Source: Alphaproteobacteria bacterium
Lineage (GTDB): Bacteria; Pseudomonadota; Alphaproteobacteria; GCA-2731375
Reading direction: 5' to 3'
Assembly: GCA_030752605.1 (NCBI GenBank)
Contig: JASMDX010000056.1
Location: 1,925 to 65,924, forward strand
DNA length: 64,000 nucleotides
Part shown: piece after piece, positions 454 through 50,255 of the stretch
How positions within the stretch are numbered: the stretch's first letter is position 1
Layout: each line of letters begins with the position of its first letter
The notes under the pieces: generated by a model
Told to the model about the DNA's origin: nothing
Database searches by the model: none
The model's input: the letters and a program-made list of their open reading frames with translations, nothing else
Translations under genes and position numbers: made by a program

Positions 454-603
454 CGGATCGGCGCCGCCCGCTCCAAGGCGGCGACGTTGCCGGAAATTAT
501 CTGGGAGATGCTGTTGTCGACGACGTCTGAGCGTCAGGGCCGGGTCATTGACCAGGATGCCGACGCCTCTATGGAACGTAAAAAGCTGGAAGGGTATTTC
601 TGA
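454..603 (+). pseudogene. cysD: 3' remnant of sulfate adenylyltransferase subunit 2 (cysD); about 49 C-terminal codons only
   Basis: Frame 1 reads ...[43 protein letters not shown], matching the conserved CysD C-terminus (TSERQGR..D......ME.KK.EGYF). The stop overlaps the cysN ATG as TGATG. The frame is closed by TAG at 451..453, and only about 330 bp separate it from the divergent methyltransferase start, whereas a full cysD needs about 900 bp. Confidence 0.65.
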
Positions 604-2543
604 TGTCGGACAATCCAGAAAATACGTTGGCGAGCGAAAGCTCACGGGCCGTGGCAGAAGCCTATCTGGCCGAACAAGGCCAAAAGGGCCTGCTACGCTT
701 TCTCACCTGTGGCAGTGTTGATGACGGCAAAAGCACGCTGATTGGCCGTTTGCTATTCGATGCCAAACAGATATTCGAGGACCAGATTGCCTCGCTTGAA
801 AGTGACAGCACACGCCTTGGCACCCATGGCCAGAACATGGACCTGACCCTCCTCATCGATGGCCTGGCGGCGGAACAGGAACAGAGTTTCACCATAGATG
901 TTGCCTACCGTTTCTTCGCCACCGATAAGCGAAAATTCATCGTCGCCGACACGCCGGGCCATGAACAATATACCCGCAACATGGCGACGGGTGCTTCCAC
1001 CGCCGATCTTGCTGTCATTTTGGTCGATGCACGCAACGGCGTGGCGACGCAGACCCGGCGCCACAGCCACATCGTCGCCATGCTGGGCATCAAACAGGTA
1101 ATCCTGGCGGTCAACAAGATGGATCTATGCGATTACGCCGAGGACGTGTTCGACGCCATCGTCGCGGATTATTCGGAATTTGCGGGCACCGTCGGCCTGG
1201 AAAACATCACCGCTATTCCGCTTTCGGCCCTGCAAGGCGAGAATGTCCTGAAGTCGTCCAGTTTGATGCCGTGGTACCAGGGTGAAACCCTCATGGCTGC
1301 GTTGGAGAGCGCTGAGGCTGGCGGCGCTGGCAACAGCGACGGACCGGCACGCTTTCCGGTGCAATGGGTCAACCGTCCCGAACTGAGTTTTCGAGGCTTC
1401 AGCGGCATCCTGACCGCTGGCCGTTTGCGCCCTGGTGACGAGATCGTGGTTCTGCCGGGGGCCAAGACCTCGCGCATCGAACGGATTGTTGCCCATGGCT
1501 GCGATTGGGAGGCAGCGGCGGCCGGCGATGCAGTGACTTTGACCCTGGCCGATGACGTCGATATTTCGCGCGGCGACGTGATCGCCAGCATGGAAGGGCG
1601 CCCGGAAACCTCAGACCAATTTCAGGTCCGCCTGATCTGGATGCACGAGGAACATCTGTTGCCGGGGCGGTCCTATCTTATTAAGGCCGCCAATCAGATC
1701 GTGCCCGCCTCCGTTTCGGAGCTGAAATACAAGATTAACGTCAACAATCAGGAACATGAAGCGGCCAAGGTGCTGGAGCTGAACGAAATCGGTATCTGCA
1801 ATATCACCCTGGCATCGCCGATTGCGTTCGAGCCTTATGGCAGGAACCGCGTACTTGGCAGTTTCATTCTGATCGACCGGTTGACCAATCACACGGTCGC
1901 CGCCGGCATGATCGATTTTGGCCTGCGCCGGGCTACCAATATTCACTGGCAACCGGTGACCGTGGACAAGCAGGCCCGCGCTCAACAGAAACATCAACGC
2001 CCGTGCGTATTATGGTTCACCGGCCTATCGGGATCGGGCAAATCCACCATTGCCGATATCGTTGAACAGAAACTGCATGCCATGAACCGGCATACCTATT
2101 TGCTGGACGGCGATAATGTGCGCCACGGCCTAAGCCGGGATCTTGGTTTTACCGATGCCGACCGGGTGGAAAACATCCGCCGCGTCGGTGAAGTGGCCAA
2201 ACTGATGGTTGATGCCGGCCTGATGGTGCAGACCGCCTTTATCTCGCCGTTCAGGGCGGAACGTCGCATGGCGCGCGATCTGCTGGTGGAGGGCGAATTC
2301 CTGGAAATTTTTGTCGATACGCCGCTTGCGGTCTGTGAACAGCGCGATCCCAAGGGGCTTTACGAAAAGGCCCGCGCCGGCGAGATCAAGAATTTCACCG
2401 GCTACGATTCGCCCTATGAAGAGCCGGAACAGGCTGACCTTAGGATCGACACGGTTGCCCTGTCGGCGGAGCAGGCGGCGGACGAGATCGTCAATTTCCT
2501 GAAAGCGCGTGGTTATCTAGGAGCCGGCAATGGCGATGCGTAG
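603..2543 (+). CDS. cysNC: bifunctional sulfate adenylyltransferase subunit 1 / adenylylsulfate kinase (CysN-CysC fusion)
   Basis: 646-aa ORF. N-terminal GTPase motifs are [27 protein letters not shown] and NKMD. The C-terminal APS-kinase P-loop is [14 protein letters not shown]. Confidence 0.95.
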
Positions 2544-2550
2544 GCGGTGG

Positions 2551-3177
2551 CTAATGGTTTTGGTCCGCCAATCCTGAAATAGCGGCAATACCCACCGCGC
2601 CGCAGGGGCTCAGGCGCGGCGCGTTGTCCATATTTATGCCGCCCAGGCCATACACGGGAAGAGTGCTGTCCCGCGCCAGCCGGGCGAACCGCTGCGGGCC
2701 TAAGGTGTGGGCGCCGGGATGGCTGGCAGTGGGAAAGACCGGCGAGAGCAGTGCCGCATGGGCGCCCAGGCTTGCCGCGCGTAGCAGGGCCGGCCGGGAA
2801 TGGGCGGCTGCCGTGACCAGCCAGCCCGGTTTTCGAGGCAGTACGGGGGGCCGCGCTGTTTGCCATTCGGGCAGATGCACGCCATGGGCCTCCAGCTTCC
2901 AGGCTAGGCGCCAGTCGCCGGCCACCAGCAAAGACAATTTTCGCGCCCGGCACAGCGCCATCAGCGCCCGGCCCAGATCCTCGCGCCCGGCAATGTCATA
3001 GTGGCGCAGGATGACCGCGCCGCCAGGGGGCAGGCTGGCCGCCGCCGGTAGCGGGTCGGTCAGGCGGTCCGCGTCGGTCAGCAGAATAAGCCGGGGCAGG
3101 CGAACGGTTTCTCCCGCTTCACGATTGAGGCGGAGGGATAGCTTTGTTAGGTTCGGGGCAGACATAGGAAAGAACAT
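2551..3177 (-). CDS. thiamine-phosphate synthase (ThiE/TenI) family protein
   Basis: Motifs LILLTDADRL, GGAVILRHYD, GVHLPE, LSPVFPTASHPG and LPVYGLGGI fit the TMP-TENI fold. The start is uncertain: ATG at 3177 or 3165, and the ORF-track start at 3213 is a TTG that overlaps yggS. Confidence 0.7.
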   Translation of the reverse strand: MFFPMSAPNLTKLSLRLNREAGETVRLPRLILLTDADRLTDPLPAAASLPPGGAVILRHYDIAGREDLGRALMALCRARKLSLLVAGDWRLAWKLEAHGVHLPEWQTARPPVLPRKPGWLVTAAAHSRPALLRAASLGAHAALLSPVFPTASHPGAHTLGPQRFARLARDSTLPVYGLGGINMDNAPRLSPCGAVGIAAISGLADQNH

Positions 3178-3180
3178 GCC

Positions 3181-3897
3181 ATGGCTTTGAGTAAGGAACC
3201 AGCCGCCACGCAAGTTGATGTGGCCGTCAATTCGGCTACAAATCTAGCTGAGGTCCAGGCCTTGATCGCTGCCGCCGAGCAAGCAGCGGGCCGGAGCGCG
3301 GGTGAAGTGGTCTTGGTCGCGGTGTCAAAGACCCAGGGCGCAGAGGATATTCTGCCTGTGATACAGGCTGGTCAGCGTTTGTTTGGTGAAAACCGGGTAC
3401 AGGAAGCACAGGGCAAATGGCCGGACTTGAAAGCCGCCCACCCTGATCTGCGCCTGCATCTGATCGGCCCTTTGCAAACCAACAAGGTGAAGGACGCCGT
3501 CGCCCTGTTTGATGTCATCGAAACCGTGGACCGGCCCAAGCTGGCCCGCGTCCTGGCCAAGGAAATGGCCAAACAGGACCGCCGCCTGGATTGTTTCATC
3601 CAGGTCAATACCGGCGAAGAGGAACAAAAGGCCGGGATCTGGCCAGAGGACGCCGATGCCTTTATCGCCCTGGTCCGTGACGAGTTGGGCTTGTCCGTAC
3701 GCGGCCTGATGTGCATTCCCCCGGTAGAGGAGGAATGCAGCCTACATTTCGCCCTGCTCCGCGAGATCGCCCAGCGCAATGGTCTGGAGGGGCTATCCAT
3801 GGGCATGAGCGCGGATTACGAAGTGGCAATCCAGTTCGGCGCCACCTTGGTGCGCGTCGGCACGGCGATATTCGGCGCCCGTAAACCGCACCCTTAG
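3181..3897 (+). CDS. yggS: YggS-family pyridoxal-phosphate homeostasis protein
   Basis: VAVSKT (PLP lysine), FGENRVQE, HLIGPLQTNKVK, QVNTGEEEQKAG and LSMGMSADYEVAIQFGATLVRVGTAIFG. Confidence 0.9.
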   Translation: MALSKEPAATQVDVAVNSATNLAEVQALIAAAEQAAGRSAGEVVLVAVSKTQGAEDILPVIQAGQRLFGENRVQEAQGKWPDLKAAHPDLRLHLIGPLQTNKVKDAVALFDVIETVDRPKLARVLAKEMAKQDRRLDCFIQVNTGEEEQKAGIWPEDADAFIALVRDELGLSVRGLMCIPPVEEECSLHFALLREIAQRNGLEGLSMGMSADYEVAIQFGATLVRVGTAIFGARKPHP

Positions 3898-4427
3898 GCG
3901 GTGATTTTGATTTCACTGTTGTTGTCCAAATCCGACAACAGTTCCAACAGATCGTCCCGCGCCAGGGCAACGCAGCCTTCCGTTGGGCCGTATTCGGGGC
4001 TGGCCACGTGCATGAAGATGGCGCTGCCGGCACCGGGCACGATGGGGTCATCATTATGGCCCAGGATCAACACCAGATCGTAGAGGCTATCCTCCCGCCA
4101 CATACTTTCCGTGCTGGCCCTGTAAGGCAGATTGACCGGCCGGTTGTAGGCGGGGTCAGCGGGCGCATCGCACCAGCCGTCATCGGGGTGGATTTCCGCC
4201 ATGGCGAGTTTACTCACCGGTCGCGCCAGACGATCGGCCCGGTACAACAGCCGCCGCAAGGGATAGCGGCCGCTGGGTGTTACGCCATCGCCTTCCATCT
4301 TTTCGGCCTGGACGCCGCCCCGGCCCAGGGCACAGCGGTACCGCTTGCTGCCGTGGCGCAGAAAACCATCGACCGTGACGTGAAGCAGCACAACAAATGA
4401 CCTTTCATTTCGAGTGTGTTTTCCCAA
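3894..4427 (-). CDS. L,D-transpeptidase (YkuD) family protein
   Basis: The C-terminal catalytic motif GSAIFMHVASPEYGPTEGCVAL has the His...Cys of YkuD domains. The start is a TTG and is uncertain. Confidence 0.75.
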   Translation of the reverse strand: MGKHTRNERSFVVLLHVTVDGFLRHGSKRYRCALGRGGVQAEKMEGDGVTPSGRYPLRRLLYRADRLARPVSKLAMAEIHPDDGWCDAPADPAYNRPVNLPYRASTESMWREDSLYDLVLILGHNDDPIVPGAGSAIFMHVASPEYGPTEGCVALARDDLLELLSDLDNNSEIKITA

Positions 4428-4570
4428 CGGAAGCTAGCATACATTCCCATTTATTCGTCATGAGGCGGGCCGCTTAACCACGAAAAGCCCTTGCGGGCGG
4501 CTGAAAAATGCCAAATTGCGCTGTTTTTCGGGGCTTCATGTTTTTCGGCGTTTTCAGATTCTGCACCTTG

Positions 4571-12221: not shown

Positions 12222-12858
12222 TTGGAGCAAACCATGTCCGAGATCGAGTATTTCTATTCCGACCATTCCGCATTCGCCTATTTGGGCTCGACCCGGTTCA
12301 TGGCAATAGCCAAGGCGGCGGACCGGGCGATCACGCACCGACCGATTGACCCGTGCCGCATCGTACCGACCGGTGGCGCCCAGTCCTTCAACCAGCGCAG
12401 CGCTAAAATTTTTTGCGTACTATTTCCGCCGCGCGATCGACCGTTGGGCCGAGGAGCGGAATGCCCCGGTAATGGATGGACGGCCCACCTTTCATGACAA
12501 TGATACCGCGCCACCCAACGGCATGTTGATCGCCGGATTACAGCAGGGACTGAATATGGACAAGCTGGCCCATGCCATGTTGCAGGCCCATTGGCGGGAC
12601 GATGCGGACCTGACGGACCGTGATACACAGGTCAAAATCGCCAACGGTATTGGCGTTGCACCGAAACCATTGCTCGACGCGGCCCTAACGGACGAGGTGC
12701 AGGTGATTTACAACGCAAATACGGAAGAAGCGATCGAGCGCTCGGTCTTCGGCTCGCCCGCCTATTTCGTGGGTGGTGATTTGTTCTATGGCCAGGACCG
12801 CCTGGAGATGGTGGAACGCGCTCTGCGCCAACCCTATGCGCCCTCGAAATATGCCTGA
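12222..12858 (+). pseudogene. 2-hydroxychromene-2-carboxylate isomerase / DsbA-like family gene, frameshifted
   Basis: The N-terminal MSEIEYFYSDHSAFAYLGSTRF...GGAQSFNQRSA (frame 3) continues as KFFAYYFRRAIDRWAEERNAPV...SVFGSPAYFVGGDLFYGQDRLEMVERAL in frame 1. The switch falls in the run gctaaaatttttt at about 12407..12416. Confidence 0.7.
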
Positions 12859-13200
12859 TGGCGGGTTATTGGGACACGACCCGGTCTTGGCAATTTCAGA
12901 TGCGGCGGCCACGGGTGAGACGGCGGCGATTTTCGCGGATATCTGCACGACCATAGATATCCCACTGATCACCTCCGTCTGGCGCTCGCTTTACGATGTT
13001 GAAGACGGCCTGACGGACGGTGAAGCCAATTTATCTGACCGGATAGGTTGGGCCGGCCCTGGAGCGCGTTATTGCGTCGGGGGATCTGCCAGAACCCGAA
13101 CTATTGGTGCCGGGACAACTGGCCTGAGCCGGTATCGGCGCCGGCGCCGTGGCCCACATGGTCGCCCTCGGCCATGCCCTGGCGAATTGTCTAAAACCCT
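12851..13200 (+). pseudogene. decayed DehI-like (halocarboxylic acid dehalogenase-like) gene fragment
   Basis: ATG at 12851 gives ...AATGETAAIFADICTTIDIPLITSVWRSL. Similarity then moves to another frame as TVKPIYLTG[TAG]VGPALERVIASGDLPEPELLVPGQLA[TGA]AGIGAGAVAHMVALGHALANCLKP. The rest of the gene is missing where the convergent adenosyltransferase gene ends. The family assignment is from memory and is tentative. Confidence 0.4.
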
Positions 13201-14115: not shown

Positions 14116-15342
14116 ATGAGCGGTGACGGGCTGAATGGGCGGCGGATGTGGTCCCTGGCGTTGTTGGCAGTTTGCGAGGTGGCCGTATTGGGCTTGTGGT
14201 TTTCGGCCTCCGCCGTTGTGCCGACCCTGGTCCTGGAATACAGCCTTTCGCCCAGCCAGGCTTCCCTGATAACCTCGGCCGTGCAGGTCGGTTTTGTCGC
14301 CGGCACCCTGACATCGGCCATATTCTCCCTAGCCGACCGCCTGGACCCGCGCCGCTTTTTCATGTTCTCGGCCTTGGTGGCGGCTGGGGCCAATGCCCTG
14401 TTGCTGGCGCTGGAGCCGACCTCGCCAATGGTAATCGTGTTGCGCTTCATCACCGGGGCCTGCATGGCGGGCGTCTATCCCGTGGGCATGAAGATGGCGG
14501 CCAGCTGGGCCCGCGACGATGTTGGTCTGTTGATTGGCATTCTGGTCGGCGCCTTGACGCTGGGCTCCGCCGCGCCGCATCTGTTCAATGCCTTTGGTGG
14601 CATTGATTGGCATTTCACCATTCTGACCGCTTCCGCCGCGGCCCTGTCGGCGGCGCTGTTGATCAGTCTGGTCCAACTAGGCCCGAAGATCGCACCCGCG
14701 CCCCCTTTTCGTCCCGGCGCCGCGTTCGAGGCCTTTCGCCGGCCGGCGCTGCGTTGGGCCAACTTTGGCTATCTGGGTCATATGTGGGAGCTGTATGCCA
14801 TGTGGGCCTGGCTGGTGGTGTTCATGGACGCTTCGTTTCGTCTTGGCATGGAGGCTGACGCGGCGGCCTGGTGGTCTCGTCTGGCGACCTTTGGCGCCAT
14901 GGGTCTGGGCGGTGCCATCGGCTGCCTGCTGGGCGGGGTGATCGCCGACCGTTATGGCCGTACGACGTTGACCATGGGCGCGATGACTGCCTCGGGCCTG
15001 TGCGCCCTGGTAATCGGCTTTTTGTTTGGCGCCGATCCGTGGCTGTTAACCCTGCTGGCAGCTATCTGGGGGGTCACGGTGGTGGCGGATTCAGCGCAGT
15101 TTTCAGCCTCTATCGTCGAGCTGTCGCCGCCTGAATCTGTCGGCACCATGTTGACCGTGCAGACCTGCGTCGGCTTCCTGTTGACCCTGTGCACGGTGCA
15201 TCTGGTACCACCCCTGGCGGCGGCCTGGGGTTGGCAATATGCCTTTTCCGTGCTGGCGGTGGGGCCATTCTTGGGCGTTTTCGCGATGTCACGCTTGCGG
15301 GTCCATCCGGATTCTGCCCGTCTGGCAGGGGGGCGCAGATAA
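14116..15342 (+). CDS. MFS transporter
   Basis: About 12 predicted hydrophobic segments, with an LADRLDPRR loop 2-3 motif. ATG at 14116. Confidence 0.85.
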   Translation: MSGDGLNGRRMWSLALLAVCEVAVLGLWFSASAVVPTLVLEYSLSPSQASLITSAVQVGFVAGTLTSAIFSLADRLDPRRFFMFSALVAAGANALLLALEPTSPMVIVLRFITGACMAGVYPVGMKMAASWARDDVGLLIGILVGALTLGSAAPHLFNAFGGIDWHFTILTASAAALSAALLISLVQLGPKIAPAPPFRPGAAFEAFRRPALRWANFGYLGHMWELYAMWAWLVVFMDASFRLGMEADAAAWWSRLATFGAMGLGGAIGCLLGGVIADRYGRTTLTMGAMTASGLCALVIGFLFGADPWLLTLLAAIWGVTVVADSAQFSASIVELSPPESVGTMLTVQTCVGFLLTLCTVHLVPPLAAAWGWQYAFSVLAVGPFLGVFAMSRLRVHPDSARLAGGRR

Positions 15343-15566
15343 TGGCGGAACTGAAACGCCGCCTGACCCTGCCGCTGCTGACCCTGTGTGGCCTTTGCGA
15401 AAAGGTTAGTAGCGCCGATCAATTCAATTTCATGATGATTGAAAACACTGGCGTGGTCGGCGTGCACTTTGGCGACTTTCTGCGCTATGCCGTCTGCGCT
15501 GACGTTGGCGCCATGCAAGAGGAACTTAATGCCGCGTTCCAGGCCGCCGCCGTTTCATGCGACTAA
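15342..15566 (+). CDS. hypothetical 74-aa protein, translationally coupled to the MFS gene (TAATG)
   Basis: The ATG at 15342 overlaps the MFS TAA. MAELKRRLTLPLLTLCGL... resembles the extreme N-terminus of APC-type permeases, so it may be a gene remnant. Confidence 0.3.
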   Translation: MAELKRRLTLPLLTLCGLCEKVSSADQFNFMMIENTGVVGVHFGDFLRYAVCADVGAMQEELNAAFQAAAVSCD

Positions 15567-15572: not shown

Positions 15573-15887
15573 CTAACCGGCGTGGGCCTGTCCGCCATTA
15601 ACCGGTTTGTGCTCGCCTTCGGGGAACGGCGCGAAGGGATAGGGGCGCTGTTCGGTATGAAATGTTTCGAAGGCCACGATCTGTTTCAGGTATTCGCCCA
15701 GGCGGGGTCCCAGCGTGTGGAGCTCTTCATTCACGGAACCCGTGGCCAGGCGGGTGACGAATTGCACCACGACGATGGCCAGAATGGCGAATTACTCGGT
15801 GTTGAAGGCCACCGCGAACAGCACCATGAAACAGGGCCGTTGCCAGATCGATTGATCGGAGATGTTGCTCTTGAGTTTCTCGTCCAT
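15573..15887 (-). pseudogene. DUF4389-like small membrane protein gene with an in-frame TAA
   Basis: From the reverse ATG at 15887: MDEKLKSNISDQSIWQRPCFMVLFAVAFNTE[TAA at 15792..15794]FAILAIVVVQFVTRLATGSVNEELHTLGPRLGEYLKQIVAFETFHTEQRPYPFAPFP. This is one 105-codon frame with one internal stop. Confidence 0.55.
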
Positions 15888-16012
15888 GCCGTTGCCGTCC
15901 CTTTGCTGGGTGTTATGGGAAGTATCGACAACAGATAGGTAGGGCGCACGCACATGCAAGATGACGCTGGGCGGAATTGACGGCCCGAAATCCGGTCAGC
16001 GGCGATGCTTGC

Positions 16013-16503: not shown

Positions 16504-17532
16504 CTATTTCGCCGCACCGCCGGCTTCCTGGCTATGGCACTCCGGCCATACGATGATGATGCCATAACAGCACAATGCCGCGATGCTCCAGACCGGCGCC
16601 GTATCGGGTGCGAACGAGGCCAACAGGCCCGGCATGCCGGTTAGGCCCAAATATACCAGCAGGCCCCAGCGCCAGGGCATCCGGTGATAAAGTATATGAT
16701 GCAAATGGCTGCGGTCGGAGGCAAAGGGAGAGCGGCCGCGGAACGTGCGCAAGGCCATGACCCGCAGGCAATCGACCACTGGGATCAGGAACCACAGGGC
16801 CACCAGGTCTGCCGGCAGCATGGTGAAGGCAATGTCGTAAACGTAAACGGTCAGGAGCGCGATGATGAAGCTGAGAAAATAACTACCCGAATCACCTAGA
16901 AACAACCGGCCGCGCAGATTGAATGCCAGGGTCACCAATAATGCGGCGCCCAGGGTAAGCAGGACCGGGCGCAGGTGATCGGGCGCGAATAACAGCAGCT
17001 CCACTGACCAGAACAGGCACAGGCCAATGACGATGCCGTTCTTGCCATCAGCCATGTTTATGGCGTTCTGCAAGCCGACGATGCAGACGGCGGTGAAGAT
17101 CAAGGCGAGCTGCTCCAGAAAAACAACCTGCCCAAGAAAGCTGAAATGCAGAAAGCTTAGCAACAGCGCCGGTACGATTTCCAAAACCGCCAAGGCTAAC
17201 AAAAATGACAACACCAGGCGATAGATTGGCCGAATTTGGGCCCGGTCATCCAGCAGGCCCAACAACAGAGAGGCCAGACCGGCGATGGCGATGACGAGGT
17301 AGAGCGGCAAAAAATCCGTGGCCACCGCGCCGTAGAACAACGCCAGCAAGGTCGGCAGGCCAATCGCCAACCCGCCCACCAAGGGCGTTATGGTGGGGTG
17401 AATTTTGCGCTTGCCGTCCGGGGCATCAAGGATCCCCAATACGATGCTGATCGGCCGGGCATATACGCAGACCAGCAGGCTCACCGCCGCCGCCCCGGTG
17501 ATCGCGAGAAGGCCGGTTACCGCGCTGCTCAT
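16504..17532 (-). CDS. glycosyltransferase family 4 (WecA/MraY-type undecaprenyl-phosphate sugar-1-phosphate transferase)
   Basis: Polytopic membrane protein with TPLVGGLAI, GLLDD and NAINMADGKNG motifs. Confidence 0.85.
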   Translation of the reverse strand: MSSAVTGLLAITGAAAVSLLVCVYARPISIVLGILDAPDGKRKIHPTITPLVGGLAIGLPTLLALFYGAVATDFLPLYLVIAIAGLASLLLGLLDDRAQIRPIYRLVLSFLLALAVLEIVPALLLSFLHFSFLGQVVFLEQLALIFTAVCIVGLQNAINMADGKNGIVIGLCLFWSVELLLFAPDHLRPVLLTLGAALLVTLAFNLRGRLFLGDSGSYFLSFIIALLTVYVYDIAFTMLPADLVALWFLIPVVDCLRVMALRTFRGRSPFASDRSHLHHILYHRMPWRWGLLVYLGLTGMPGLLASFAPDTAPVWSIAALCCYGIIIVWPECHSQEAGGAAK

Positions 17533-17806: not shown

Positions 17807-18808
17807 ATGACGAACTTGCTTACCGGTGCCGCTGGTTTTATCGGTTTTCACGTGGCGCGGCGGCTCTTGGATCAGGGCGAGCGGGTCGTCGGCGTCGATA
17901 ACCTGAGCCCCTATTATTCGGTAAGCCTGAAGGAAGACCGTTTGCGGCAATTGTTGCAGCATCCCAATTTTACCTTCCATCAGGTCAATATCGCCGACCG
18001 GGGCGCCATGCAGGAGGCGGTCGGCGGCCTGAAAATCAGCTCGATCATCCATTTGGCAGCCCAGGCCGGGGTCCGCTACTCCCTGGAAAACCCCTTTGCC
18101 TATATCGAGGCCAATGTGGTTGGCCATATGGTTGTTCTCGAACTGGCCCGGCAGCAAGCGGCGTTGGAGCATCTGGTTTACGCATCTTCCTCATCCGTTT
18201 ACGGCGGCAATACGAAATTTCCCTTCAGCGAGGATGACCGGGTGGATCAACCGGTATCGTTGTATGCTGCGACCAAGAAAGCCGATGAACTGCTGTCGCA
18301 ATCCTATGCCCATTTATACGGCATCCCGCAAACCGGCCTGCGTTTCTTTACCGTGTATGGCCCCTGGGGCCGGCCGGACATGGCCTTGTGGCTGTTCACG
18401 GAGGCGATCCTGACGGGACGGGCTATCAAGGTTTTCAACAATGGCGATATGCGCCGGGACTTTACCTATGTGGATGATATTGTCACGGGCATCCTGGCCG
18501 CACGCGACAACCCGCCTGCTCGCAAAGATAGTGGGCAAGGCGGCGAGGCGGGTGGCGGGGCGCCGCACCGGGTCTACAACATCGGCAATAACCATCCCGA
18601 ACAACTGTTGCGGCTGATCGAAGTGTTGGAAGACGCCCTTGGCTGCAAAGCGGAGCGGATCTTGCTGCCCATGCAGCCCGGCGACGTCAAGCAAACCTAC
18701 GCCGATTTGACTGCCATTGAACGGGATCTCGGCTTCAAGCCGACGACAGTCATTGAGCAGGGCGTGCCCCAATTCACCGCCTGGTACCGGGACTACTACA
18801 ATCTGTAG
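17807..18808 (+). CDS. NAD-dependent epimerase (UDP-glucuronate 4-epimerase-like)
   Basis: LLTGAAGFIGFHV, YASSSSVYG, YAATKKADE, RFFTVYGPWGRPDMA. Confidence 0.9.
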   Translation: MTNLLTGAAGFIGFHVARRLLDQGERVVGVDNLSPYYSVSLKEDRLRQLLQHPNFTFHQVNIADRGAMQEAVGGLKISSIIHLAAQAGVRYSLENPFAYIEANVVGHMVVLELARQQAALEHLVYASSSSVYGGNTKFPFSEDDRVDQPVSLYAATKKADELLSQSYAHLYGIPQTGLRFFTVYGPWGRPDMALWLFTEAILTGRAIKVFNNGDMRRDFTYVDDIVTGILAARDNPPARKDSGQGGEAGGGAPHRVYNIGNNHPEQLLRLIEVLEDALGCKAERILLPMQPGDVKQTYADLTAIERDLGFKPTTVIEQGVPQFTAWYRDYYNL

Positions 18809-24312: not shown

Positions 24313-25581
24313 GTGGTACGATTAGCAGATCTGGACGAGCCGGAACGCTCGCACTTGGCCAATATACCTTGCGCCAGTTTCGATGCCGAGCCCTGGGTTA
24401 CGGGCCCGCCCCTGACGGAACGGCGGATCGCGATGATCTCCACCGCCGCGCTGCAGCATCGGGACGACACACCGTTCCTGATCGGTACCGGTGATTACCG
24501 CTACATTGCCGACGATACGCCAGCCAGTGACCTGGTCATGGCGCATATCTCGACCAATTTCGACCGCTCCGGCTTCGAGCAGGACCTGAACGTGGTGCTG
24601 CCCCTGGACCGCATGCATGAATTGGCCGAGGCTGGCGAAATCGGCTCCGTCGCGCGGTTCCATTACGCCTTCATGGGCTCCACCGACCCGGTGCAGATGG
24701 AAGCTGCAGCCCGCGCCATGGCTGGCCATCTTAAGGCGGATGGGGTCGATAGCTGTATCTTGCTGCCTGTTTGACCCTTGTGTACGCGCGCCGTGGGCGG
24801 GCTGGCACATTATCTGGAAGACGAAGGCCTGGCGACGACGCAGATCAGCCTGATCCGGCCGCAGACGGAGAACACGCGGCCGCCGCGCGCTCTGTGGGTG
24901 CCGTTTGAATTGGGCCGCCCATTAGGCGCGCCCAATGACGCGGCTTTTCAAGCCAAGGTGCTGCGGACCGCCTTGGCCCTGCTGGAACGGACGGACGGTC
25001 CGGTCATCCTGGACGACTTTCCCGAAGATGCGCCGGTTTCTGGGGCGGCGGAAAATGATGAGGGCTGGTTCTGTCCCATTAATCTGCCGCCACCGCCCGC
25101 TGATCTGGAAGCGGGTGGCGGTTACAAGGTGGCCATACAGGCGGAAATCGGCGGTCTGACCACGTGGTATGATATTGCCCTGCGCGAGCGTGGGCGGACG
25201 ACCATGGGTCTCAGCGGCATGAAGATCGACGAGATCACGGATTTTGTCTGCGCCTTTCTGGATAGCCAGATACCGGAAAACCCAAACGAAGGCCAAAGCC
25301 TGGGGCAAAGCCTGAAATTCGCCGTCGAGGATCTGAAGGCTTTTTACCGCGAGGCCGCTGGTGCGCAACCGGGGCAAAATACTGGCAAGGAAATGAATGA
25401 CTGGTTCTATGGCAGCACGGCGGCGGGTAAGGCGATGTATGCGCTGTGGCCCATCGCCGATAACCTGGCGAAACAGTCGGGCGATGAATTCATGAAAATA
25501 TTCGCCAATCTGCTGTTGATCCCCGCGTCGCAGAAATTCCGGGCAAAGGCGGCAAATACGAAGGGGGAGGCCGGAACATGA
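24313..25581 (+). CDS. GrdB/PrdB-family (glycine/sarcosine/betaine/D-proline reductase B-like) selenoprotein; TGA at 24772..24774 read as Sec
   Basis: ORFs 24313..24774 and 24778..25581 share one frame and are separated only by TGA-CCC. Joined, they read ...AGHLKADGVDSCILLPV-U-PLCTRAVGGLAHYLEDEGLATTQISL. This parallels the GrdB selenocysteine region (GVD..IL...U..CTR......E..GI). The N-terminal half has the GRDB-family pattern (RIAMISTAAL, DYRYI, H....FD, FPLDR-like LPLDRMHELAEAGEIGS). Total length is 421 codons, close to GrdB size. Confidence 0.8.
24781..24809 (+). promoter_or_regulatory. candidate SECIS-like hairpin downstream of the Sec UGA (hand-folded, imperfect)
   Basis: ugu/aca outer pairs flank a CGCGCC...GGCGGGC stem (24785..24804) with one G-G mismatch and one bulged U. 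The G/U-containing apical loop (cGUGg) lies about 18-22 nt after the UGA. Confidence 0.3.
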
Positions 25582-26528
25582 CGGCCAAGCTGGCAATCCT
25601 GGATGACTATCAGCGGGTAGCGCTGGAGCTGGCGGATTGGTCTGGCCTGCCAGGAGATGTGGAAATCACTGTTTTCGATGACAATCTGGCTGACCTGGGC
25701 GCAGTGGCCGAACGCTTGGCGCCATTTGAAATCCTGGCCGCCATGCGGGAGAGGACGCCCTTTCCCCGCGTCTTGTTCGAAAAACTGCCGAACCTGAAAC
25801 TGCTGGTCACCACGGGCATGCGCAACGGTGCCATCGATATGGCGGCGGCGGCGGAGCACGGCGTCATCGTCTGCGGTACCTTGGGCAGCACCGAATCCAC
25901 GGTGGAAATGATCTGGACCTTGATCCAGGCCGTGGTCCGCCGCCTGCCGCAAGAGGACAGGGCGACCCGCGAAGGTAAATGGCAGACCAGCGTGGGCTGG
26001 ACCTTGGCCGGGCGCACCCTGGGCCTGGTTGGTTTGGGCCGGCTTGGCGTGCGGACCGCCGCCATCGCGAACTTTTTCAATAAGCGGGTTATTGCCTGGA
26101 GCGAAAACCTGACGCTCGAGCGGGCCGCTGAATGTGGCGCCGAACTTGTTTCGAAGTCGGATTTGTTCAAGCAATCCGATATTGTCTCGATCCACCTAAT
26201 ACTGTCGAAACGCAGCCGCGGCCTGATCGGCGCCGATGACCTTGCCTCGATGAAATCGGAACCTTAACTGGTCAACACCGCGCGCGGCCCCATCGTTGAC
26301 GAGGCCGCGCTGCTGGAGGTCTTGCGTCAAGGCCGTATCGCCGGCGCGGCCCTGGATGTCTATGATCAGGAGCCTCTGCCCAAGGATCATCCGTTGCTGG
26401 TTTTGGATAACACCATTATCTCGCCGCATATGGCGTATGTAACCGAGGAAAACCTGACGCAATTTCATCGCGAAACCGTGGAAGATATCGTCGCCTGGCT
26501 AAGTGGCCAGCCGATCAGAGTGCTTTAA
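25578..26528 (+). pseudogene. D-isomer-specific 2-hydroxyacid dehydrogenase with an in-frame TAA
   Basis: ORFs 25578..26267 and 26322..26528 are in one frame: ...GLIGADDLASMKSEP[TAA 26265..26267]LVNTARGPIVDEAALLEVLRQGRIAGAALDVYDQEPLPKDHPLL...SPHMAYVT. The stop falls inside the conserved MK....LVNT.RG block. The Rossmann motif GLVGLGRLG is upstream. The ATG overlaps the selenoprotein stop (ATGA). Confidence 0.8.
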
Positions 26529-26550
26529 ACAACGGCACTACCGGTTGTTT
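26527..26550 (+). terminator. possible intrinsic terminator after the CoA-transferase/selenoprotein/dehydrogenase unit
   Basis: aaacaacgg-cacta-ccggttgttt forms a stem with one bulged G, followed by the T-rich ggcctaatatttttcttt. Confidence 0.4.
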
Positions 26551-26639
26551 GGCCTAATATTTTTCTTTGCTATTGTTAATCGATGGCACGCCAAGCGAGA
26601 TGAATCGTAGAAAATCACGATAAATACCAAATTATAAAT

Positions 26640-26770
26640 ATTTTATTAAATGCAGTTTTGTGCATTTTTAAATAATAATATCTACAATTTATCATTATAG
26701 ACCCAGTATTTACATAATAATGTAAAACTACATTAACACAAATAGGCAAAAATTCTGGATGTATTGCCTA
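26640..26770. promoter_or_regulatory. AT-rich intergenic island with three separate inverted repeats upstream of the hemerythrin gene
   Basis: AAATGCA-N6-TGCATTT (26648..26667), TTTACAT-N4-ATGTAAA (26709..26726) and TAGGCAA-N14-TTGCCTA (26743..26770). They sit in a visibly AT-rich stretch within otherwise GC-rich DNA. Confidence 0.4.
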
Positions 26771-26913
26771 CCTACTTAACCGTCTCTCCCAGGGCGCAGG
26801 TGTTTAGTTTATGAATGCGCCTAGTTTATCGGCCAAATTAGGTGACGGCAGTATTCCGGACGTACTTGATGACGGTCAATTAATTTACTGATCAGGAAGC
26901 TTAGCATTGCGCG

Positions 26914-27330
26914 ATGACCTTGGTTGCCTGGCAGGCAGAGTTCGAAACCGGTATTTCTTCGGTGGATTTTGAACATAAGGAGATGGTGGAGCTGTTCAAC
27001 CAGCTTTCCATCGAGCTTGACCACGATCCCAATGACGATGCGATCGGAGATTTTCTGGGCGAGGTTTTAGCCAATACCTCGGCCCATTTCGTACTCGAGA
27101 AAAAAATCATGCGCGATACCGGTTATGACGAATACAAGCTCTACAAAGCGTATCACGAACAGTTGCTGGATGCCATCCGGGACATCATGGATGATCACCA
27201 TATGGGTGAATTCGGCGACGTTCCCGACTTATTGGCCGGACGTCTGAAAAACTGGTTCTAGGAGCATTTCCACGCCTTTGACGCTCGCCTGGGCCATTTG
27301 ACGGAAGGCGCGGCAGTCGCGCATTCATAG
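26914..27330 (+). pseudogene. bacteriohemerythrin gene interrupted by an in-frame TAG
   Basis: MTLVAWQAEFETGISSVDFEHKEMVELFNQL...TSAHFVLEKKIM...YHEQLL...LKNWF[TAG 27259..27261]EHFHAFDARLGHL...*(27328..27330). The stop sits inside the terminal W-x-x-x-H-x-x-x-x-D iron-ligand motif of hemerythrins. Confidence 0.75.
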
Positions 27331-27395
27331 TCCATAAGGTATCTTCGCCTGATGTGCCACTGGGCAGGATCGCCTACGCCTGTTATGAAGCGGGC

Positions 27396-36108: not shown

Positions 36109-36715
36109 TCAGGGTACGGACATCAAGGCTCGGACGTGGGCCGCCGTTGCCATTGCCAATGCGGTCAGATCATAACCGCCTTCAAGAGAGGAAACCAGCC
36201 GCCCATCGCAACGGCGCGCCGCCATGGCCAATAATTCTCGGCTGACCCAGGCATAGTCATCCGTGTCCAGGCGTAGTTGCGCCAGGGGATCATCAGCATG
36301 GGCTTCAAAACCCGCTGAAATCAACAATAATTACGGTTCGAACCTATCCAGGGCCGGCAGCAAACCGTCGGTGACGGCGGCGTGAAAATCACTTCCCGCG
36401 GCATCTGGGGCCAGGGGAAAATTATGGATATTGCTGGCGCCCCTTTTCGATGCCGCGCCGGCCGGATACTGGGGCATTTGATGGGTCGAGCCATAGAACA
36501 GATCGCCGTCATCCCAGAACGCGGCCTGGGTGCCGTTGCCGTGATGCGCGTCGAGGTCGACCACCGCGACGCGCTTCAAACCATGGGCGCGCGGGCATGC
36601 TGGGCGCCGATGGCAACCGAATTGAAGATGCAAAATCTCATGGAGCGTTCCTGCCCGGCATGGCCCGCGCCCATGTCATGCCCCAGAAATACCGCGTGTT
36701 CAAATATCAAGGTTA
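36109..36715 (-). pseudogene. histone deacetylase / acetoin-utilisation (AcuC/APAH) family gene: 5'-truncated, frameshifted, with an in-frame TAA
   Basis: One frame reads ...GAGHAGQERSMRFCIFNSVAIGAQHARA. After a shift near 36585..36600 it continues as HGLKRVAVVDLDAHHGNGTQ...ALDRFEP[TAA 36331..36333]LLLISAGFEAHADDPL...SLEGGYDL. About 130 N-terminal codons have no room before the divergent gene at 36782. Confidence 0.75.
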
Positions 36716-36781
36716 TGTTTTATCCTGTCGCTGCGAGGGGATGTTGCACTAACATCAGGGCGAAAAAGGGGGATTGGCGGT

Positions 36782-45541: not shown

Positions 45542-45621
45542 GCCAGTCAAATTTTTTTGTCTAATTTGGAGTTTGCCCTTATGGCCAAGCATGGTTCTCA
45601 TCGTCGCGGAATAGAACCGGG

Positions 45622-46377
45622 ATGCGGGTGACCGTGCTTGGCTGCGGCACCTCTGGCGGGGTGCCTCGGATCGGCAATATCTGGGGCGTTTGCGACCCAG
45701 CCGAGCCAAGGAACCGCCGCCGCCGTTCCTCTATCCTGGTGCAAAGCGGGAGCACCAACCTGATCGTCGACACCGCGCCGGACATGCGCGAACAATGCCT
45801 GGATATAAACCTCCAGAGTCTGGACGGCGTCCTTTACACCCACGATCATTCCGATCACGTCAATGGTATCGATGATTTGCGCGGCTTTACCCTGCTGCGG
45901 GGCGCGCGCACGCCGGTATATGCAGATGCCGCCACCCTGGCCAGCCTGCAACAGCGTTTCGACTATATCTTCACCACCGCCGGCAATTATCCCGCCATTG
46001 CCACGGCACACCTTATCGATGGCCCTTTTGCTGTGGGCGACATTGATATTCAACCGTTTCGGCAAGACCACGGCGTTATGGAAAGCCTGGGCTTCCGTTT
46101 TGGCGGCATGGCCTACTCCACGGATTTGAGCGGCCTGCCGGATACCGCATTCGAAATGTTGCGGGGTCTGGATGTCTGGATCGTCGATGCCCTGCGCCCG
46201 AAACCACACCCAACCCACAGCCATCTGGCCCAAACCCTGGAATGGATCAATAGGTTGCGGCCCAAGCGGGCGATCCTCACTCATATGACCTGGGATATGG
46301 ATTACGCGGCCTTGTGCGCCGAGCTGCCGGCGGGGGTGGAGCCGGCCTATGACGGCATGACCATTGATTTTTCGTGA
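45622..46377 (+). CDS. MBL-fold metallo-hydrolase (PhnP-like)
   Basis: VTVLGCGTSGGVP, ILVDTAPD, and YTHDHSDH (HxHxDH). Confidence 0.8.
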   Translation: MRVTVLGCGTSGGVPRIGNIWGVCDPAEPRNRRRRSSILVQSGSTNLIVDTAPDMREQCLDINLQSLDGVLYTHDHSDHVNGIDDLRGFTLLRGARTPVYADAATLASLQQRFDYIFTTAGNYPAIATAHLIDGPFAVGDIDIQPFRQDHGVMESLGFRFGGMAYSTDLSGLPDTAFEMLRGLDVWIVDALRPKPHPTHSHLAQTLEWINRLRPKRAILTHMTWDMDYAALCAELPAGVEPAYDGMTIDFS

Positions 46378-46498
46378 TTTTCAGGGTTCTGAGCCGCTCG
46401 CCTGGAAACCTGGTCTTAAAAATTGAAAGGGCTCCATGGCTCTAAGCCACGGCTCCCAGCCAAGGGCTGTGCCGGAGGAGGAGGGGACCGGCCCAGCG

Positions 46499-46535
46499 GC
46501 ATCAGCCAGGACGGATACGGCTGATGCTGTTTGTT
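46499..46535 (+). terminator. intrinsic-terminator-like hairpin in the MBL/polA spacer
   Basis: GCATCAGCC (46499..46507) and GGCTGATGC (46519..46527) form a perfect 9-bp stem with an 11-nt loop, followed by tgtttgtt. Confidence 0.5.
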
Positions 46536-46579
46536 AGCCTGGTGCGCATCGAACAACTCACAGACTAAGGGAGGCACAT

Positions 46580-46662
46580 TGACAAATGATTATTTTATAA
46601 TATTTATATATCTTTTATTGGGCGCATAATATATTTCGGACTACCCAATAAGGCATTTGTCA
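46580..46662. repeat. nested inverted repeats enclosing an AT-rich core immediately upstream of polA
   Basis: The outer pair is TGACAAATG (46580..46588) / CATTTGTCA (46654..46662). The inner pair is TTATTGGG (46615..46622) / CCCAATAA (46644..46651). Confidence 0.6.
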
Positions 46663-46743
46663 GCGCTGAATCTTGGCGATTGGTTTTGTTGGCTGCGCAT
46701 TGACATCATTCCACCCATGGCCCGGTCATGGCATAGTGGCGTC

Positions 46744-49572
46744 ATGAGCGAGCAAAACAGCACCACCTCCACTAAGCCATCCAGCCAGCACGTGGCGGGT
46801 GGCGGGCAACCGGGCCATCTCTATCTGGTCGACGGTTCCGCCTATATCTTCCGCGCCTATCACGCCCTACCGCCGCTGACCCGCAAGAGCGACGGATTGC
46901 CCATCGGTGCCGTTTCGGGCTTTTGCAACATGCTCTCGAAATTGGTCGATGATGTGCGCAATGATGGCGAGGTGGATTACTTCGCGGTGATCTTTGATGC
47001 CGCGCGCAAGACCTTCCGCAACGATATTTATCCCGAATACAAGGCTCATCGCCCGCCGCCGCCAGAGGATCTGCAGCCGCAGTTTCCCCTGGTGAAGCGG
47101 GCCAGCGAAGCCTTCAGCCTGGCAACCATCGAAATGCCCGGCTTCGAGGCCGATGATATCATCGCTACCTATGCCCGTCAGGCCAGGGAGGCCGGCATGC
47201 AGGTCACCATCGTTAGTTCCGACAAGGATCTGATGCAGCTGATAGGCGGCGGCGTGGTCATGCATGATCCCATGAAGCAGCGCCGCATCGGCCCGGACGA
47301 GGTGTATGAGAAATTCGGCGTTGGACCGGACCGGGTTATCGATGTGCAGGCACTGTGCGGTGATGCCACGGACAATGTACCCGGCGTGCCCGGCATCGGC
47401 GTCAAGACCGCTGCGCTGTTGATAAACGAATATGGCGATCTGGACGGCGTGTTGGCGCGGGCCGAGGAAATCAAACAGCCAAAGCGGCGGCAAAACTTGA
47501 TTGACCATGCTGATCTGGCCCGGGTCAGCCGTGATTTGGTCACTCTGAAGGATGATGTGCCGGTGGAACAGCCCCTGGACGAGCTGGGCCTACGGGAGCC
47601 GGAGGCGGAGGTGCTGCTGGATTTCATGGCTGAGATGGGCCTGGAACGCTTGGCTGGGCGCATCGCGCAACGTTTGGGCGGCGAGGTGCCGGAGGCCGTG
47701 GCGCTGGCGGAGGCGGAAACGGCACCGGCGCTTGATTATCAATGTATCCAAACCCTGGCGGAGCTTGAAAGCTGGATCGAAAGGGCCCGCGCCGCTGGCG
47801 TCGTGGCAGTGGATACGGAGACCACATCCCTGGACGCCATGGCGGCGAATCTGGTGGGGGTCTCTCTCTCTATTGAGCCGGGCCAGGCCTGCTATATCCC
47901 CCTGGGCCACAAGGGCCCAGTGCCGGAAGGCGAGCTGGATTTGGGCGGAACTGCCGATACGGCTCCGGAGCAGATCCCCCTGGATCGTGCCCTGGATCTG
48001 CTCCGCCCTCTGCTGGCCGATCCGTCGGTCTTGAAGATAGGGCAGAATCTGAAATACGACATGCTGGTGCTGCGCCGCTATGACATCGAAATCACGCCGC
48101 TCGATGACACCATGTTGCTGTCCTATGTGACGGAAGGCGGCATGCACGGCCATGGGATGGACGAGCTATCCAAACTGCACCTGGATATCGCGCCGATCCC
48201 CTTCAAGGAGGTGGCGGGCAGCGGCAAATCACAGATCACATTTGATCAGGTACCGTTGGACAAAGCGGTGGAATACGCGGCTGAGGACGCGGATCTGACC
48301 CTGCGTCTGTACCGGCGCCTAAAGCCGCAACTGCTCGTCAGCCGCAAGACCGCCGTTTATGAAACCCTGGAGCGGCCTCTGGTGCCGGTGCTCGTCGATA
48401 TGGAACAGGCCGGTATTCTGGTCGATCGGGCCGAACTGGTGCGGCTGTCAGCCGACTTTGCGGGCCGTATCGTTACCCTGGAAGGGCAGATCCACGAGCT
48501 GGCCGGCGAGGCCTTCAACGTCAATTCGCCGAAACAGCTGGGCGAAATCCTGTTCGACAAGATGTCCATACCTGGCGGCAAGAAAACAAAGACCGGTGCC
48601 TATGGAACCGGTGCCGATGTTTTGGAAGGACTGGCCGCGCAGGGCCACGACCTGCCGCTGCGGGTGCTGGAATACCGTCAGTTGGCAAAGCTAAAAAGCA
48701 CCTATACGGACGCCCTGCAAAACCAGATCAACCCCACCACGGGACGGGTCCATACCTCGTACGCCATGGCGGCGACGTCCACAGGGCGCCTGGCCTCCAC
48801 CGATCCGAACCTGCAGAACATTCCCGTCAGGACCGAGGAAGGTCGGCGCATCCGCAAGGCCTTTATCGCGGCGCCGGGCCATAAACTGTTGAGCGCGGAT
48901 TATTCCCAGATCGAACTGCGCATCCTGGCCCATATCGCCGATATCACCGCCCTGCGCGAGGCCTTTCATGATGGCCTCGATATTCACGCTATGACGGCGG
49001 CGCAGGTTTTTAATCTGCCTATAAAGGATATGGATCCGATGATCCGCCGCCGGGCCAAGGCGATAAATTTCGGCATCATCTATGGTATCTCCGCCTTTGG
49101 CCTGGCTAACAATCTGGGTATCGAACGGGGCGAGGCGCAGGATTACATCAATGCCTATTTCGAACGCTATCCAGGTATCCGCACCTATATGGAAAAAACC
49201 AAGGAAAGCTGCCGCGAGCTTGGTTATGTGGAAACCATTCATGGCCGCCGGGTGCATATGCCTGGCATCAACGACAAGAATGGTGCGCGGCGCGGCTTTC
49301 ACGAACGGGCCGCCATCAACGCGCCCATTCAAGGCTCGGCGGCGGATGTGATCCGCCGCGCCATGGTCGCCATGCCGGATGCCTTGGCCGCGGCGGGGCT
49401 GAATGCGACTATGCTGCTGCAGGTGCACGATGAACTGGTCTTTGAAGTGCCCGAAGGGGAGGCCGAGGAAACGGTCACGGTGGCCAAATGGGTAATGGAA
49501 GGCGCGGCGCATTTATCCGTGCCCCTGGTTGTCGATGCCGGGACTGGCAATAGTTGGGACGAAGCACATTAG
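46744..49572 (+). CDS. polA: DNA polymerase I
   Basis: The ATG at 46744 gives ...HLYLVDGSAYIFRAYHA (5'-3' exonuclease), VAVDTETTSLD (3'-5' exonuclease) and DYSQIELRILAH...QVHDELVFE (polymerase motifs A and C). Confidence 0.97.
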   Translation: MSEQNSTTSTKPSSQHVAGGGQPGHLYLVDGSAYIFRAYHALPPLTRKSDGLPIGAVSGFCNMLSKLVDDVRNDGEVDYFAVIFDAARKTFRNDIYPEYKAHRPPPPEDLQPQFPLVKRASEAFSLATIEMPGFEADDIIATYARQAREAGMQVTIVSSDKDLMQLIGGGVVMHDPMKQRRIGPDEVYEKFGVGPDRVIDVQALCGDATDNVPGVPGIGVKTAALLINEYGDLDGVLARAEEIKQPKRRQNLIDHADLARVSRDLVTLKDDVPVEQPLDELGLREPEAEVLLDFMAEMGLERLAGRIAQRLGGEVPEAVALAEAETAPALDYQCIQTLAELESWIERARAAGVVAVDTETTSLDAMAANLVGVSLSIEPGQACYIPLGHKGPVPEGELDLGGTADTAPEQIPLDRALDLLRPLLADPSVLKIGQNLKYDMLVLRRYDIEITPLDDTMLLSYVTEGGMHGHGMDELSKLHLDIAPIPFKEVAGSGKSQITFDQVPLDKAVEYAAEDADLTLRLYRRLKPQLLVSRKTAVYETLERPLVPVLVDMEQAGILVDRAELVRLSADFAGRIVTLEGQIHELAGEAFNVNSPKQLGEILFDKMSIPGGKKTKTGAYGTGADVLEGLAAQGHDLPLRVLEYRQLAKLKSTYTDALQNQINPTTGRVHTSYAMAATSTGRLASTDPNLQNIPVRTEEGRRIRKAFIAAPGHKLLSADYSQIELRILAHIADITALREAFHDGLDIHAMTAAQVFNLPIKDMDPMIRRRAKAINFGIIYGISAFGLANNLGIERGEAQDYINAYFERYPGIRTYMEKTKESCRELGYVETIHGRRVHMPGINDKNGARRGFHERAAINAPIQGSAADVIRRAMVAMPDALAAAGLNATMLLQVHDELVFEVPEGEAEETVTVAKWVMEGAAHLSVPLVVDAGTGNSWDEAH

Positions 49573-49591
49573 CTAATTTTCGCGGAGGACA

Positions 49592-50255
49592 ATGAGGAAA
49601 GGTTTGGGGCGAAAACTGAGACTAGGCAGCGGGTAGGTGCTGTTCGTTTTTGTGACCACGCATTTCATCAATCATACCTTGGGCAATATATCCCTTGGCG
49701 CCATGGAGGCCGGGCGTGAAGTCTTTACGGCGCTATGGCGCAACTGGCCGGCGACCATCTTGTTCTATGGCGCCATACTAGTGCATGCTTTGGCGACCCT
49801 GGGCGTGCATGAATTTTTCGGCGTCAACGACAGCTATCTCTATGAAATCCTGAAAATATGGGTGTTCGAGCCGCTGTATGGCTGGCTAGCGGCCCTGGCA
49901 GGGGGCTATGGCTGTATTGGTTTGCACCAATGGCTGCGCCTGAAACCCTGGTACAGTCGAGCCTGCCTCTGGCTGCTGACCGCTGCTCTGTTGTTGCCGG
50001 CTCTGGCACTCTCTGGTTTTGCTAGCGTTGGAAAACAGATCGCCCTGTGGACGCAAGACTAGGCCTGGATGATTGCGTTCATCGCGTCAGTTAAGTTCAG
50101 CGTACCTGTTAGCGAGCTGAAGGAATTTGCCGTGCAGACGGTGATCTCCAGCTTTGTCGCGGCGCGCGCCGGCGCTGACCTTTCGGCTTTCGAGGCGCGT
50201 GAGATCACCGTACGGGGCCGGGCGGAGGCAATGGCCGTGCATCTAATCACCTTGC
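49592..50255 (+). pseudogene. membrane-anchored class III adenylate/guanylate cyclase gene, heavily decayed
   Basis: The ATG at 49592 follows GGAGGA. MRKGLGRKLRLGSG[TAG 49634..49636]VLFVFVTTHFINHTLGNISLGAMEAGREVFTALWRNWP... matches the N-terminal membrane domain of alphaproteobacterial cyclases, but a helix pair is missing. A second in-frame TAG lies at 50060..50062. Then IAFIASVKFS...ADLSAFEAREITVRGRAEAMAVHLI, which is only the first strand and the extreme C-terminus of a cyclase domain. About 220 codons remain of an expected >500. Confidence 0.65.

Follow-up and report, generated by a model that had tools for sequence, protein, structure and literature searches.

Gene loss in progress has its closest described examples in young monomorphic clones such as Salmonella enterica Typhi and Paratyphi A, in which single nonsense and frameshift lesions strike accessory metabolic and sensing genes and are fixed in a nearly identical, widespread population, old stumps lie beside fresh knock-outs, few lesions are caused by insertion sequences (IS), and the within-lineage ratio of nonsynonymous to synonymous polymorphism (pN/pS) is raised. 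Recently host-restricted bacteria such as Sodalis glossinidius, Serratia symbiotica and Mycobacterium leprae also display several stages of decay, with operon-erasing deletions and spared housekeeping genes, and carry 30–50% pseudogenes at a coding density of ~50%, often with IS blooms and AT drift and with little recombination. Streamlined bacterioplankton of the SAR11 type have genomes almost without pseudogenes or long spacers, their old losses having been cleaned up. Here we analyze a 64,000-nucleotide stretch of contig JASMDX010000056.1 (referred to in its entirety as the window) from an uncultured marine alphaproteobacterium, in which eight of about 68 protein-coding loci (~12%) are disrupted, i.e., several times more than the 1–5% typical of free-living bacteria. 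We consider it probable that the window records a lineage-specific and continuing gene decay in a recently expanded clone.

The window shares the above features of the Salmonella clones, the near-identity of the population being partly a matter of retrieval by exact protein identity, and differs from them in its marine, uncultured setting without a known host, in signs of recombination, and in a local density of disrupted loci (~12%, a value for the window and not genome-wide) that exceeds the 4–5% of Typhi. With Sodalis, Serratia symbiotica and M. leprae it has in common the coexistence of several decay stages, an erased operon and intact housekeeping genes; unlike them, it is 84% intact coding sequence with 60% G+C, no IS and recombination-like tracts. 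Like SAR11, its source is a marine alphaproteobacterium that is losing cysD (hence ATP sulfurylase) as well as accessory sensing and respiratory modules, but here the remnants are still visible, and thus gene loss is caught in progress. The process is a known one, and it is the setting, an uncultured marine bacterium, that is unusual.

Eight disrupted loci of the window

Gene tables of the assemblies with Pfam domains, combined with a check of open reading frames (ORFs), gave a count of 58 intact genes that cover 83.8% of the window, besides two that are truncated at its ends and eight pseudogenes (6.5%); the latter correspond to one dead gene per 8–10 kb. The intact-gene coding density is ~89–90% in the gene tables of two relatives (L071 and L073). 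Profile searches were run with typed translations of candidate regions carrying X at the stops, the other spacers being read by eye, and codon-level mapping placed all eight lesions at or near the positions first assigned to them. Homology to a functional family was found for all eight loci (via Pfam, NCBIfam, PDB or homologous proteins), the assignment of the DehI-like locus being below threshold.

We have compared these lesions across 16 assembled records of ~20 kb each, which come from different samples and assemblers and are 99.90–99.99% identical to the window. Each lesion is identical in 3–7 independent assemblies and none of the 16 records differs at a lesion, with scattered single-nucleotide polymorphisms (SNPs) elsewhere; the lesions are thus not assembly errors, and the caveat of the preliminary description that a low-quality assembly could mimic part of the decay is refuted, also by the lack of close full-length alleles. 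Intact orthologs at the same position were retrieved from relatives for four of the eight loci (cysD, the isomerase, the dehydrogenase and hemerythrin genes described below); the relatives, which that description had proposed to check for a shared split architecture, do not have it, and the lesions are lineage-specific. All three stop codons end intact genes of the window (TAG 26, TGA 17 and TAA 15 times), on which ground codon reassignment was rejected and read-through is, indirectly, improbable; the sole tRNA of the window is a tRNA-Gln (UUG), with no suppressor tRNA. Such sequence comparison confirms the eight loci as true pseudogenes, present in every assembly examined. Four of them carry a single lesion and are young, and four are old stumps.

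The two freshest pseudogenes flank a large deletion. The gene of a D-2-hydroxyacid dehydrogenase (25578..26528, + strand) aligns with Pfam 2-Hacid_dh_C over positions 2–178 of 178, straight through an in-frame TAA (26265–26267) that stands where eight relatives have TAT or TAC (Tyr) and that removes ~87 C-terminal residues. Intact orthologs of 318–320 aa occupy the same position in relatives and give a single alignment through the stop, while among 5.8 billion proteins all same-species records end at 229 aa and full-length ones reach no more than 90% identity. The ratio of nonsynonymous to synonymous divergence (dN/dS) against five relatives is 0.05–0.15 on both sides of the stop, equal to that of intact neighbors (0.07–0.15), and thus the gene was under selection for almost the whole time since the species split and its stop is recent. 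One assembly (L008) has an additional 1-bp deletion in this gene.

The hemerythrin gene (26914..27330, + strand; Pfam Hemerythrin 1–118 of 127 through the stop) carries a TAG (27259–27261) in place of a GAG (Glu) of the intact, same-position ortholog in L016, which is 88% identical in a single alignment; the stop costs the protein its 22 C-terminal residues and, with them, its final metal-binding segment, the conserved H-x3-D stretch. Between the dehydrogenase and hemerythrin genes, four relatives (L014, L016, L017 and L018) have a 6.6-kb operon that is deleted here and that had not been noticed in the preliminary description. Its products are a PAS_5 protein, two subunits of a heme-copper oxidase (a CuA-type subunit II and a very divergent subunit I that scores 52 bits vs. 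the 670-bit cut-off of CtaD), heme O synthase, an SCO1-like protein, a fusion protein (cytochrome b/4Fe-4S/FlpD) and a further protein of 170 aa. The operon extends over L017:14670-20889 and L016:14737-20503, with counterparts in L018 and L014. The scar (26529..26913, no strand assigned) is 385 bp long and AT-rich (36% G+C), and the junction is evident from an alignment of window positions 26721–26920 with L016 13742–13942, which then skips to L016 20554.

The cysD remnant (454..603, + strand) consists of the last 49 codons and a TGA that overlaps the start of cysNC (TGATG). It matches positions 271–317 of the 317 positions of the NCBIfam CysD profile (E 6e-14) and residues 279–325 of PDB 1zun_A (E 7e-12), about 250 5′ codons (~0.78 kb) being deleted. 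An intact cysD of 300 aa is found at the same position in six relatives (L079–L084, CysNC 82–89% identical), and in two of these (L082 and L083) it is flanked by the same 192-aa upstream gene as well as by cysNC downstream, so that the present lineage has lost ~0.78 kb of cysD by a clean excision. The partner cysNC (603..2543, + strand) is intact (NCBIfam bifunctional CysN/CysC, E 1e-299), and its polymorphisms in four assemblies, five nonsynonymous vs. two synonymous, may reflect incipient decay under relaxed selection after the loss of cysD. The exact window CysNC protein occurs in only 4 contigs, while neighboring proteins occur in at least 100 assembly blocks.

The pseudogene of a 2-hydroxychromene-2-carboxylate (HCCA) isomerase of the DSBA family (12234..12858, + strand) owes its frameshift to an extra T in a run of six (12410–12415). 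Its two overlapping ORFs join into a protein that matches Pfam DSBA over positions 2–190 of 191 across the frameshift (E 2e-19), and the DNA alignment with L071 and L073 shows exactly one extra base. Intact orthologs of 205–210 aa with up to 83% identity are present at the same position in L071–L073, and no closer intact allele exists among 5.8 billion proteins. The lesion is identical in L001–L006; a 161-aa call in L005 and L006, considered as a possible intact allele, reflects only a difference of gene callers, the DNA being identical.

Directly downstream, between the isomerase gene and a cobalamin adenosyltransferase gene, a 345-bp stretch that has no match in Pfam, NCBIfam or PDB contains a DehI-like stump (12869..13193, + strand), in which residues ~5–54, a frameshift, residues ~52–92 and a short C-terminal piece (~residues 259–272) can be recognized. 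It has TGA at 13011 and TAG at 13044, and tblastn mapping shows ~165 internal codons to be missing. A full-library phmmer search returned 95 matches with E down to 3e-12, many of them to the N-termini of proteins of 275–291 aa; the full-length homologs match Pfam DehI below threshold only, so that the label "DehI-like" is fair but weak. Two relatives (L072 and L073) lack the stretch, with 30–40 bp between its flanking genes. In L071, the 83%-identical relative, an IS630-type (DDE_3) transposase gene stands directly 3′ of the isomerase gene and is followed by a rearrangement (L071:10683-11637); it occupies the same junction as the stump, so that the site seems insertion-prone. The 345-bp insert was also considered as a relic of this element and shows no similarity to it.

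For the remaining three loci, the families were recognized by profiles or homologs. The DUF4389 pseudogene (15573..15887, − strand) matches Pfam over positions 2–76 of 76 (E 5e-21) through an in-frame TAA (15792–15794). Public gene calls list antisense "hypothetical proteins" opposite this and the dehydrogenase pseudogene (15342–15566 and 15582–15938 on the + strand, and 26196–26468 on the − strand), which are most likely spurious. The remnant of an HDAC-family deacetylase gene (36109..36719, − strand) represents the C-terminal half, with Pfam Hist_deacetyl matched at positions 138–298 of 298 only; residues 159–314 of PDB 5ji5_A align with it, as do residues 133–156 (24 residues) in another frame, the TAA (36331–36333) stands where Gln is expected from this alignment, and ~100 codons of the N-terminal half are deleted. 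The last locus (49592..50250, + strand) is what is left of an N-terminal membrane domain of the (2Fe-2S) adenylate-cyclase family; it contains TAG at 49634 (codon 15) and 50060, has lost 37 and 4 codons in frame and lacks the downstream domains. The fragment has no match in Pfam, NCBIfam or PDB, and its family was obtained from a homolog search with residue-level alignment (P0122–P0135, 38–60% identical, some with PF00111 or PF00211 or named adenylate cyclase at source); since some members of the family are stand-alone proteins of ~250 aa, the intact ancestor was not necessarily a cyclase gene. In L011, a 32-bp indel lies inside this remnant.

The preliminary description, made from the letters of the DNA, had claimed the reduction of cysD to 49 C-terminal codons, the isomerase frameshift, the frameshift, TAG, TGA and truncation of the DehI-like gene, the single stops of the DUF4389-like, dehydrogenase and hemerythrin genes, and the two TAGs and internal deletions of the cyclase, and these claims are borne out by the profile and residue-level alignments, codon checks and intact orthologs given above (the DUF4389 stop by Pfam alignment and codon check), with the proviso that neither the DehI family assignment nor an ancestral cyclase function is implied. 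For the HDAC-family gene, the frameshift and TAA stand, and where a 5′ truncation had been described, there is an internal loss of ~100 codons in the N-terminal half.

Lesion types and variation within the lineage

The lesions comprise substitutions of one base (TAT to TAA, GAG to TAG), slippage by one base in the run of six T, and deletions from 12 bp to 6.6 kb. A repeat search of the window revealed only short chance matches, with no repeats or miniature inverted-repeat transposable elements, and the Pfam gene tables have no transposase, integrase or phage domain among the called window genes. Within the window, therefore, there is no sign of an expansion of IS or other mobile DNA, and the earlier notion of decay by point mutations and deletions without mobile elements holds, as does the observation that housekeeping genes are intact and the broken genes all accessory. 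By contrast, the excess of TAA and TAG among the premature stops, which had been taken as a sign of GC-to-AT mutational pressure, is accounted for by codon usage alone: with the codons of the window, 86% of one-step nonsense targets lead to TAA or TAG, so that six of six is expected (P ~0.4), and one of the two reconstructed lesions is T-to-A (TAT to TAA). GC-to-AT bias was therefore rejected as the cause of this excess. There is no AT-biased drift either, as the G+C content is 56–63% throughout the window (60% overall).

Exact-protein look-ups found window proteins in well over 100 blocks of public metagenome assemblies, which include TARA, three JGI projects, several ENA re-assemblies and NCBI metagenome assemblies as well as one metagenome-assembled genome (MAG), GCA_030749385.1. 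The relatives, with 82–91% amino-acid identity, are MAGs that carry the label Rhodospirillaceae or Alphaproteobacteria and come from the Black Sea, Saanich Inlet, the Arabian Sea and comparable waters; the species of the window was not among the matches of a scan of species-representative genomes, the best of which reached 91%.

Within the species, SNPs in intact genes comprise 33 synonymous and 25 nonsynonymous changes, i.e., a pN/pS of 0.25, or 0.38 without clustered tracts, vs. ~0.1 between species. Some disruptions vary between assemblies, namely the 1-bp deletion in the dehydrogenase gene of L008, the 32-bp indel in the cyclase-family remnant of L011 and a stop in an epimerase gene of L004. 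This last gene (17807..18808, + strand) is intact in the window (333 aa), and in L004 a G-to-T change at 17879 creates E25* (the gene being called there at 288 aa), which is a new disruption varying within the population.

Six short tracts (1935–1965, 16851–16925, 24705–24768, 25877–26083, 53429–53492 and 59005–59059), each in a single assembly, contain 3–13 SNPs at 5–12% divergence, as compared to a background divergence of ~0.05%. The densest example (L078) has 13 SNPs in 206 bp of the dehydrogenase gene. Fast neutral decay was considered for it and rejected, since derived states occur on both alleles and the SNPs are too dense; import or strain mixture is likelier. Judged by their pattern, the tracts are probably either recombination imports from diverged relatives or strain mixtures in the assemblies. 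The population thus does not look genetically isolated, insofar as the tracts resemble imports, mixed-strain assembly being the other possibility.

Explanations for the decay

In the scenario that we favor, a recent bottleneck or clonal expansion of the lineage would have been followed by relaxed or inefficient selection on accessory metabolic, sensing and respiratory genes, so that chance mutations would knock genes out first and deletions would then whittle the remnants away. Some of the losses appear to be functionally linked, namely the oxidase operon with the adjacent hemerythrin gene, and cysD with the excess of amino-acid polymorphism in cysNC; a narrowed niche in which, for example, O2/NO respiration and sulfate assimilation are less needed would fit them. 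Of the settings suggested in the preliminary description, a narrowed niche is thus consistent with the linked losses, and a small or recently bottlenecked population with the near-monomorphism (exaggerated by identity-based retrieval) and raised pN/pS.

Several points weigh against this scenario. The assemblies were retrieved by exact protein identity, which favors near-identical strains, so that the near-clonality is partly a retrieval bias. The signal of relaxation is weak, the dehydrogenase gene having 8 lineage-specific replacements vs. 1–3 in neighboring genes. For the DUF4389, HDAC-family and cyclase-family genes, no intact ortholog at the same position was retrieved, and the DehI-like stump may derive from an inserted sequence and not from an ancestral gene. 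The DNA covered amounts to ~83 kb of one genome; the pseudogenes all lie within 0.4–50 kb of the window, and broken genes are absent from the 50–64 kb part and from the adjoining 10 kb on the right (with leuBCD, ribosomal proteins and ffh), so that the pseudogene density may be local. The present data would fit drift as well as adaptive loss.

Accordingly, adaptive niche specialization in a large population (streamlining or Black-Queen-type loss in oxygen-deficient, reduced-sulfur-rich water, driven by selection and not by drift) is a possible explanation, to which we give only limited credence. The linked losses of the oxidase operon with hemerythrin and the PAS_5 gene, of a member of a redox-sensor cyclase family and of cysD would suit it, as would the origin of the relatives from low-oxygen basins and the case of SAR11, which likewise is not known to have assimilatory sulfate reduction. 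It agrees poorly with the dead remnants that make up 6.5% of the window, since streamlined plankton have almost no pseudogenes and short spacers, or with the raised pN/pS and near-monomorphism, which point to weak selection; moreover, the isomerase, DehI-like, HDAC-family and DUF4389 genes have no obvious common theme.

Ordinary background, i.e., a normal genome-wide load of which the window happens to contain a local cluster of dispensable accessory genes, is rather unlikely. In its favor, the 50–64 kb part and the adjoining 10 kb of core genes have no pseudogene, all broken genes are accessory, and the window was chosen from a scan of many windows. However, the fraction of broken loci (8 of ~68) exceeds the usual 1–5% several-fold, the pseudogenes are interspersed with core genes such as polA, metG, dxs and groEL and do not form one island, and the deleted operon and the disruptions that vary between assemblies raise the count further.

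Recent host restriction, i.e., early reductive evolution of a lineage that lives with a planktonic eukaryote as symbiont or parasite, had also been suggested in the preliminary description and is improbable. It would account for many pseudogenes, the lowered coding density and a near-clonal population across samples; beyond the pseudogenes, nothing speaks for it specifically, whereas the 60% G+C without AT drift, the lack of IS expansion, the intact biosynthetic and cell-envelope genes and the exclusively marine or other environmental origin of the assemblies, none of them known from a host, count against it. Recombination-like tracts, six of them at 5–12% divergence, would not be expected in, and argue against, an isolated intracellular symbiont.

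Finally, errors of sequencing or assembly are very improbable, as is functional recoding (read-through, programmed frameshifting, split enzymes) of genes that are not dead. In their favor, four of the lesions consist of one event each, one falls into a homopolymer, and conservation is still high downstream of the dehydrogenase stop. Against them, the lesions recur in independent assemblies that differ elsewhere by SNPs, every stop codon also ends intact genes with no suppressor tRNA in the window, no relative has any of the splits, the truncations take essential parts (the ~87 C-terminal residues of the dehydrogenase and the metal-binding stretch of hemerythrin), and second lesions segregate inside pseudogenes.

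If decay in a recently expanded clone is the correct reading, its boldest extension, which we regard as doubtful and put forward tentatively, would be a widespread, nearly monomorphic planktonic clone of low-oxygen or mesopelagic water in early genome reduction, with ~10% of its genes (several hundred) dead, in the course of shedding assimilatory sulfate reduction together with a divergent heme-copper oxidase module, and with no known host, i.e., a marine counterpart of Salmonella Typhi. Marine planktonic bacteria are usually credited with very large populations and efficient selection, and hence with few pseudogenes, and a common, widely sampled lineage with such decay would be a counter-example. 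The window would also offer a natural time series of gene loss, from a fresh stop via several lesions to a stump and a clean operon deletion, and the visible loss of sulfate assimilation (cysD) and of an oxidase module could help to explain dependencies in low-oxygen water. On a practical side, the probably spurious antisense "hypothetical proteins" and truncated enzymes in public gene calls would mislead metabolic reconstructions from MAGs. The only paper that a literature search turned up, on alphaproteobacteria from oxygen-deficient zones (order UBA11136, 10.1101/2023.11.21.568154), is of tangential relevance.

Other features of the window and its flank

An Rfam scan of the window found no family besides the tRNA-Gln, and no additional gene remnant was noticed in the remaining spacers on reading by eye. 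In L009, a 12-bp insertion lies directly upstream of the dksA start codon (window position 27353). To the right of the window, L077 (PVBE01; L077:12430-16466) has an 817-aa ORF without a Pfam domain where other assemblies have leuB-leuD-leuC, a difference due either to structural variation or to chimerism of the contig. At 24313–25581, a 153-aa protein with a GRDB domain and one of 262 aa without a curated family adjoin a family III CoA-transferase gene; the two stay separate genes in all relatives and are thus not a split pseudogene.

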